Shown piece after piece: positions 20,523-21,138 of a stretch of 64,000 bases of DNA (position 1 is its first letter; each line of letters opens with the position of its first letter). A program made the translations under genes and the position numbers. The notes under the pieces were generated by a model. It was not told where the DNA came from and searched no databases. It saw only the letters and a list, made by a program, of their open reading frames with translations. The DNA comes from Escherichia coli (GTDB lineage Bacteria; Pseudomonadota; Gammaproteobacteria; Enterobacterales; Enterobacteriaceae): NCBI RefSeq assembly GCF_003334785.1, contig NZ_QOWV01000003.1. One strand, given 5' to 3'.

Positions 20523-21100
20523 AATAGAAACTCATTCGAAAAGGGAATGATGCAATGATAATTGCCACAACCTATTTTTACCATCTATAGATGGGTTTAT
20601 TTACATATTATTGGTGAATGCAAGACGTTATTTTTACCAGCCATAAACTTCTTGATTACATAGTATTACGAAAGGATTTTACTGAGAACCAGAAGTAATA
20701 TTCCTTACCATCAAAATTCATCATCTTTGCCAAAGAAAAATGTTCAGAAAATAATCCATGGAAAATTGTCCGGAGCACTTACTATTTTAATGGATTGTTA
20801 GTCTTTGCATGAGCAAGCGAACTGATACATTTCTCTTTGTTCTCATTCAGAAAATCTCATCAGTCGCCGTTCAGACCGGTGTTGTGCTTTATGGATGCGT
20901 TACGCTCCTGATGACGTCATTTGACGTTCAACAGCATCACGGGGCCGCACGACATTTCACGTCAGTTAGTGCTATAGCTCAGGAACAAATTTTCCCGAAT
21001 TGGGATATGCCCGCAAATTGCTGGTGATGTGGGGAGAATCTGGTTGAGTTCGGTAGAATTGATTTGGAGGCAGAACGCTTAAATCGTGGCGTCCTGAAAC

Positions 21101-21131
21101 GAAAAACGGACCTCCGTGGAGGTCCGTTTAT
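21101..21131 (-). terminator. Rho-independent terminator downstream of pheU
   Basis: On the minus strand: aaacggacctcc-acgg-aggtccgttttt, GC stem followed by a U-run, 8 nt after the tRNA 3' end. Confidence 0.65.
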
Positions 21132-21138
21132 ATGAATT

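Follow-up and report, generated by a model that had tools for sequence, protein, structure and literature searches.

Is the DNA between cadC and the 3' end of pheU in Escherichia coli an integration site that has never been used, or does it hold the remains of an earlier occupant? pheU is a textbook hotspot for genomic islands, and an initial annotation of this region had described the site as unoccupied while suspecting a decayed remnant within it. The window analyzed here is a stretch of 64,000 nucleotides that contains MG1655 4359500-4364500 verbatim from position 18088 (offset 4341412). pheU, a tRNA-Phe(GAA) gene, occupies 21139..21214 on the minus strand (ARAGORN; Rfam tRNA, 68 bits), and the 512-aa CadC ORF occupies 18984-20522 on the same strand. 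The two calls leave a spacer of exactly 20523-21138, which is the 616-bp gap originally described. As also stated at the outset, no frame of the spacer contains an intact integrase ORF. The only long ORF is one of 72 aa on the plus strand, and an Rfam search of 18500-23000 at permissive thresholds found the tRNA alone.

The spacer nevertheless carries the broken remains of an integrase gene. A tblastn search of the spacer with the intact 421-aa integrase of strain CFSAN061769, whose gene adjoins pheU (locus L006, WP_032171996.1), recovered three collinear minus-strand pieces (20975..20782) in three different frames, with a joint E value of 1e-9. The first piece (20943..20975, minus strand) corresponds to integrase codons 1-11, with 8/11 residues identical (IALTDVKCRAA versus MALTDAKIRAA). 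Its match is weak when taken alone (E = 0.18) and leans on its position and on other species. The second (20858..20941, minus strand) corresponds to codons 359-391, where the spacer translation RDAVERQMTSSG-----A*RIHKAQHRSERRLM has 19/33 residues identical to RDAVERQMSHQERNGVRAAYIHKAEHLEERRLM. The third (20782..20856, minus strand), in a third reading frame, covers codons 397-420 and the stop (DFLNENKEKCISSLAHAKTNNPLK*; 14/24 residues identical to DFLDANRERFISPFEYAKINNPLK). At the nucleotide level, 20779-20949 aligns with the last 200 bp of the integrase gene of CFSAN061769 at 67% identity (E = 2e-17), and the alignment stops at the integrase stop codon. The equivalent of codon 1, at 20975, lies 164 bp from the end of the tRNA and on the same strand as pheU, in the position and orientation of a P4-type island integrase.

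The MG1655 RefSeq record already places a pseudogene here, yjdQ (b4654), on the minus strand at 20779..20941 (MG1655 4362191..4362353), and PGAP labels the same place in other strains “tyrosine-type recombinase/integrase,” frameshifted, incomplete, and missing the N-terminus. The integrase-remnant pseudogene that the initial annotation mentioned for this interval of K-12 is therefore yjdQ. Its suggestion that the spacer holds a decayed integrase remnant is borne out by tblastn, by the nucleotide match, and by the MG1655 and PGAP annotations; the absence of integrase similarity in every frame, for which it would have abandoned that suggestion, is not what was found. The fossil and the annotated pseudogene are the same object, but the annotation spans only the C-terminal pieces. 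A literature search on yjdQ found no paper.

Because codons 1-11 and the C-terminal pieces are both kept, the lesion is an internal deletion and not a 5' truncation. The deletion removed ∼1.03 kb (∼347 codons), from codon 12 to about codon 353-358. The gene was later damaged further by small deletions, two frameshifts, and a stop codon, and its ATG start has become ATA in K-12. In the piece corresponding to codons 359-391, the region of the catalytic Tyr has been lost through a 5-codon deletion and an in-frame stop: in place of the segment SHQERNGVRAAY, which contains the conserved His and this Tyr, the spacer encodes TSSGA*R. The HGFR (HxxR) box, at reference positions 341-344, falls within the deleted part. 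No catalytic residue survives, and there is no intact ORF with the catalytic Arg, Lys, HxxR, His, and Tyr. The yjdQ region is a pseudogene and not a functional member of the P4-type integrase family. Between codon 1 and the tRNA-proximal sequence lies a diverged integrase leader (20976..21005, minus strand), which has small deletions relative to a divergent Escherichia lineage (L015) and Escherichia albertii; in the multispecies alignment, these two have ∼25 more leader bases than K-12.

Affiliation of the fossil with the P4-type integrases is provided by its best match, the E. coli pheU integrase, and by weaker matches in Leclercia, Trabulsiella, and Klebsiella. The reference integrase of CFSAN061769 is recognized by PHROG 1 (integrase) at 1e-63 and by NF007246 at 1e-74, and a repaired 65-aa remnant gave no meaningful match to the PHROGs and NCBIfam profiles, being picked up solely by pairwise comparison with close integrases. 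The spacer showed no similarity to the 394-aa pheU integrase of strain VE-T10 or to the 438-aa integrase of strain 14EC047. The intP4 integrase family of GI-pheV and GI-pheU islands has been described (PMC11537424, PMC7686366), and its members (e.g., WP_032171996.1 of CFSAN061769) are the best protein match to the fossil. Like the fossil, the intP4 integrases of E. coli islands are located immediately 3' of tRNA-Phe, in the same orientation, and with the same left-end sequence and hairpin. However, living intP4 genes encode 421 aa and are accompanied by cargo and a 19- to 23-bp attR, whereas the K-12 copy consists of ∼70 scrambled codons with no catalytic residues and no attR.

The DNA between the integrase remains and the tRNA also matches a living island. 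Window positions 21006-21300 are 96.3% identical to L006 19982-20276, which comprises the tRNA and the first ∼133 bp of the living island, and the intact 421-aa integrase of that island follows its left end, starting 198 bp from the tRNA. The left-end (attL-proximal) segment common to living pheU islands is thus found at 21006..21138 (minus strand), the first 114 to 133 bp past the tRNA being ∼96% identical to the living left end. Within this segment, a terminator scan predicted an island-type intrinsic terminator of pheU at 21094..21138 (minus strand), with the hairpin AAACGGACCTCCACGGAGGTCCGTTT at 21129..21104 and then a T-run. The hairpin (ACGGACCTCCACGGAGGTCCGT plus the T-run) begins 9 nt past the end of the tRNA; its 11-bp stem, of which 6 pairs are GC, closes a 4-nt loop, and TTTTCGTTT follows. 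Structurally, this is a GC-rich hairpin with a T-run downstream of a gene, as in intrinsic terminators, and it is 96 to 98% conserved among Escherichia species. Its structure and conservation suggest that this hairpin is the terminator of pheU in Escherichia.

The distribution of the hairpin among genera bears on its origin. The tRNA flank was readable in 74 of 80 species loci anchored on dicD, and the K-12-type hairpin was present in 10 of the 74. An intP4-type integrase, or a stub or remnant of one, is adjacent in nine of these (Escherichia spp., E. albertii, Leclercia, Trabulsiella, Klebsiella spallanzanii, and Raoultella planticola); the tenth, Citrobacter amalonaticus (L020), has left-end noncoding sequence only. 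Another, widely conserved hairpin, AACCCAGCC-N4-GGCTGGGTTTTTGC, is found in 56 other loci. This type of hairpin thus tracks intP4-type integrases across genera, which we count in favor of an island origin. In P4-type integration, the sequence 3' of the crossover in attL derives from attP, and a pheU terminator borne by the island is therefore what this mechanism predicts. The pheU terminator of Escherichia appears to be island supplied rather than ancestral. The annotation of yjdQ may accordingly be refined: codons 1-11, the leader, and the island-type terminator (20943-21138) form one fossil with the annotated C-terminal pieces. The original description of the site as unoccupied holds for present-day islands but not for the ∼350 bp beside the tRNA, which are island derived and include the terminator hairpin.

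A copy of this junction was seen in strain 14EC047. The 68-bp copy (L004, 20001-20067), made up of the 3' 23 nt of the tRNA and the 45-bp island-type hairpin, belongs to a composite island near aer/ygjG, where it is flanked by genes for a TcdA/TcdB-like glycosyltransferase and a DUF4942 protein. This genome has no other part of the cadC-pheU spacer, and the copy suggests rearrangement between islands. tRNA-Phe sequence was also found on a 187-kb E. coli plasmid (NZ_CP137739.1 37307-37436; hit H90), where the region shares 91.5% identity with pheU plus the adjoining flanks.

The spacer was followed through 5,426 complete E. coli genomes, of which 5,219 (∼96%) keep ≥80% of its 616 bp. These numbers, with the copies in other Escherichia species, establish that the fossil is fixed in E. 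coli. The remnant, pheU, and dicD are contiguous in 3,726 of the 5,426 genomes, and K-12, which was correctly described as having no present-day island at pheU, shares this common arrangement. In ∼31% of genomes, a living island or integrative and conjugative element (ICE) is inserted at pheU and the fossil is shifted to the far end of the element. Megablast of 20680-21620 against the same genomes returned a large class that matches only from 21025 onward and smaller classes that match from 21097 or 21139. Elements at pheU include an intP4 island of >70 kb (L006, CFSAN061769), an island with a different, 394-aa integrase (L007), and a SPI-7-type ICE (L008). The 3' end of pheU is a live attB, as islands in other strains demonstrate, and pheU and pheV are hotspots served by one integrase type (PMC7686366, PMC11537424). 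Repeats at the far ends of these elements define the site as 21139-21161 for P4-type islands and as 21139-21187 for the SPI-7-type ICE, the attR repeat being 19 to 23 bp in L009 and L010 and 49 bp in L008. At each far end examined (L008, L009, and L010), the whole K-12-type spacer is found immediately beyond a tRNA-end repeat of 19, 22, or 49 bp, and the fossil therefore acts as the chromosomal flank for present-day elements.

K-12-like strains with IS1 inside the spacer also exist. In strain YJ4 (L005, 5288-6213), IS1 is inserted at ∼20729, with further examples in hits H1 and H31. The insertion in YJ4 is accompanied by loss of the DNA from yjdJ through the cadC upstream region (lysU, dtpC, and cadABC are gone), while the fossil and pheU are kept.

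The fossil is older than E. coli. Escherichia whittamii (L013), Escherichia sp. strain E1V33 (L014), and the divergent lineage L015 all have the tRNA, left end, integrase stub, and cadC, and in all three the junction of the large deletion is as in K-12, with secondary indels that differ in each. Since the large deletion is common to these lineages, the fossil predates the divergence of E. coli from them. Some of the copies are less decayed than that of K-12 and restore further integrase residues, e.g., SGLWSRDPVKRQM, HHERNGV, and KPTDGAGMFLLVHP: E. whittamii keeps the start (ATG GCA CTG ACT GAC, MALTDAKC) and HHERNGV, and L015 keeps SGLWSRDPVKRQM (codons 354-366). E. albertii NBRC 107761 (L018, 8759-9060) has a different stub, consisting of the leader and codons ∼1-43 (…KPTDGAGMFLLVHPDSPR*WRLR) and interrupted by an internal gap and a stop; a C-terminal piece is lacking, and unrelated AT-rich DNA extends from the stub to the end of the contig. 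The N-terminal stubs at pheU in this strain and in Raoultella planticola share the integrase family, site, and island-type hairpin with K-12 but retain codons ∼1-43 or 1-55 without a C-terminus, unlike the end points in K-12, and are independent decay events. Between-species identity is 0.82 to 0.92, plus indels, for the fossil, compared with 0.74 to 0.85 for four-fold-degenerate sites of cadC and dicD, 0.96 to 0.98 for the hairpin, and 0.89 to 0.96 for the last 90 bp before the cadC ATG. By these values, the fossil drifts in a manner close to neutral, and both ends of the spacer are constrained.

The far boundary of the ancient island was sought throughout the window. The 3' 23-mer of the tRNA (TGGTGCCCGGACTCGGAATCGAA) has no second copy at ≤3 mismatches in the 64 kb, in agreement with the earlier statement that a direct repeat of the tRNA 3' end is lacking. 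The best match inside the spacer has 10/23 mismatches, typical of shuffled sequence (minimum, 8 to 12), and the best attR-like matches across the whole window, with 7 to 8/23 mismatches, are at chance level. Neither a native pheU terminator nor an attR was found near yjdF/fumB (4100-4300) or elsewhere in the window, and no cargo genes of an ancient island were recognizable in it. With no attR and no recognizable cargo of variable presence, it is the integrase and the left end alone that identify this DNA as an island, and with cargo and attR gone or unrecognizable, the fossil cannot excise.

We consider it very likely that the spacer is a fixed, nonfunctional fossil of the left end of a P4-type (intP4/CP4-like) genomic island. 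Judging from the build of living relatives, the island would have integrated into the 3' end of pheU by site-specific recombination catalyzed by its tyrosine recombinase. Integration would have rebuilt the tRNA 3' end and placed directly downstream of it the island's terminator hairpin, the leader, and an integrase gene oriented away from the tRNA. The internal deletion may have come first and the smaller damage afterward, an order of events that we infer from the living relatives, and cargo and attR would have been lost or have become unrecognizable, leaving the fossil immobile. The parts that still work are the tRNA 3' end, as attB, the upstream region of cadC, and, to judge from its structure and conservation, the hairpin as terminator.

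The cadC side of the spacer differs in content. The AT-rich region upstream of cadC (20523..20781, minus strand; GC, 0.30 to 0.33) is presumed to contain its promoter and leader, and no integrase or island similarity was detected in it. A promoter scan yielded no minus-strand promoter for cadC and a single sigma-70-like site, on the plus strand and within chance expectation; a literature search for a mapped cadC transcription start found nothing usable. A perfect 14-bp palindrome, CCATCTATAGATGG, occurs at 20581-20594, ∼60 to 70 bp upstream of the cadC start codon. E. coli strains show almost no variation in it, and most of it is conserved in other Escherichia; it could be a protein-binding site. 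GC content is 0.29 to 0.45 over 18600-20800 (cadC and both flanks), well under that of the neighboring genes (0.45 to 0.57 in cadB and 0.50 to 0.58 in dicD/dsbD).

In an alternative account, the cadCBA-dtpC-lysU block, and possibly more, would be cargo that entered Escherichia at pheU with the island of the fossil integrase. cadC, cadB, and cadA follow the integrase stop codon on the same strand; cadC and its flanks have the low GC content just given (0.29 to 0.45); among loci that show this flank, cadC is the neighbor of pheU only in Escherichia and in 0 of ∼70 other Enterobacteriaceae loci; yjdF is 17 kb from pheU in E. coli but follows it within ∼200 bp in Enterobacter and Kosakonia; and the cad block has been lost as a unit in YJ4 and in an O8:H− strain (PMC3408504). 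However, the best candidates for an attR in the 64-kb window are at the level of chance (7 to 8/23 mismatches), the GC content of cadA and cadB is ordinary (0.45 to 0.57), the deletions in YJ4 and the O8:H− strain are IS or island mediated and not excisions, and pheU flanks are variable everywhere. We regard cargo status for this block as improbable. In its fullest form, the dead integrase would be the entry mark of the lysine decarboxylase acid resistance module (cadCBA with dtpC and lysU), carried as P4-type cargo to an Escherichia-specific site and immobilized by the internal deletion of the integrase and the loss of attR; this, too, seems to us a long shot, but if it were true, a block now treated as core E. 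coli genome would be island derived.

The 72-aa ORF (20809..21027, plus strand) could be read as a genuine small-protein gene overprinted on the dead integrase, and its frame stays open in Escherichia sp. strain E1V33 and in all seven E. coli strains examined. Across the seven E. coli strains, 12 synonymous and 15 nonsynonymous distinct substitutions were counted, a nonsynonymous share (15/27) somewhat under the 0.77 expected if substitutions were random. Against this, no Shine-Dalgarno-like sequence is visible upstream of its ATG, it has no PHROG or NCBIfam match, it is unannotated in MG1655 and by PGAP, many of the changes between strains are radical, and the frame is broken in other species: a frameshift and a stop interrupt it in E. 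whittamii, and L015 has lost the start and contains stops. A conserved frame, a ribosome binding site, and a family or annotation, by which a small protein-coding gene would be recognized, are thus missing, and we give a genuine gene very little credence. The ORF exists where it was first reported, but its interpretation as the decayed remnant fails: every integrase piece is encoded on the minus strand, antisense to this ORF, which has no family match and is disrupted in E. whittamii and L015. It is very probably a chance antisense open frame and noncoding.

That the site is virgin, with a spacer of ordinary intergenic DNA whose integrase similarity is due to chance or an annotation artifact, would fit the lack of an attR repeat, the lack of a profile library match for the remnant, and the short, AT-rich spacer, but it is scarcely credible given three collinear integrase pieces (joint E = 1e-9), the nucleotide match (E = 2e-17), 96% identity to a living island left end, and less-decayed Escherichia copies that restore SGLWSRDPVKRQM, HHERNGV, and KPTDGAGMFLLVHP.

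An integrase pseudogene at this site was already known as yjdQ, and the observation of a remnant is in this respect correct but routine. The new details are the kept N-terminal codons and leader, the putatively island-derived pheU terminator, the deletion common to Escherichia species, and the near-neutral drift. They affect how the boundaries of pheU islands are drawn, as the “K-12 empty site” already holds ∼350 bp of island-derived DNA. An incoming island of the same family would be flanked by ∼140 to 155 bp of direct homology (the 114- to 133-bp segment with the hairpin, plus the tRNA end), so attR calls made from the 19- to 23-bp repeat alone may be misplaced. RecA-dependent loss or exchange of islands via this flanking homology is plausible. 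The common deletion also offers a cheap phylogenetic marker for Escherichia lineages.

The flanks of pheU in other genera are arranged differently. yjdF (window 3516-4145) follows pheU within ∼130 to 500 bp in Enterobacter and Kosakonia loci (L038, L046, L061, and L063); in E. coli, the ∼17 kb between yjdF and pheU contain fumB, dcuB, dcuRS, yjdIJKO, lysU, dtpC, and cadABC. In many island-free genera, tRNA-Phe is followed by a “native” pheU terminator and then, ∼45 to 80 bp after the tRNA, by a conserved motif, CCGGACTCTCCATCGAACT(N)CGTTCGATTATTC (L029, L036, L057, L061, L062, L068, L070, L071, L080, L082, L083, L085-L088, and L090). The motif resembles an inverted and then a direct partial copy of the T-arm and 3' end of the tRNA, and integrase fragments are found just past it in Leclercia sp. 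(L070). Possible readings are a second att-like site and a fossil.
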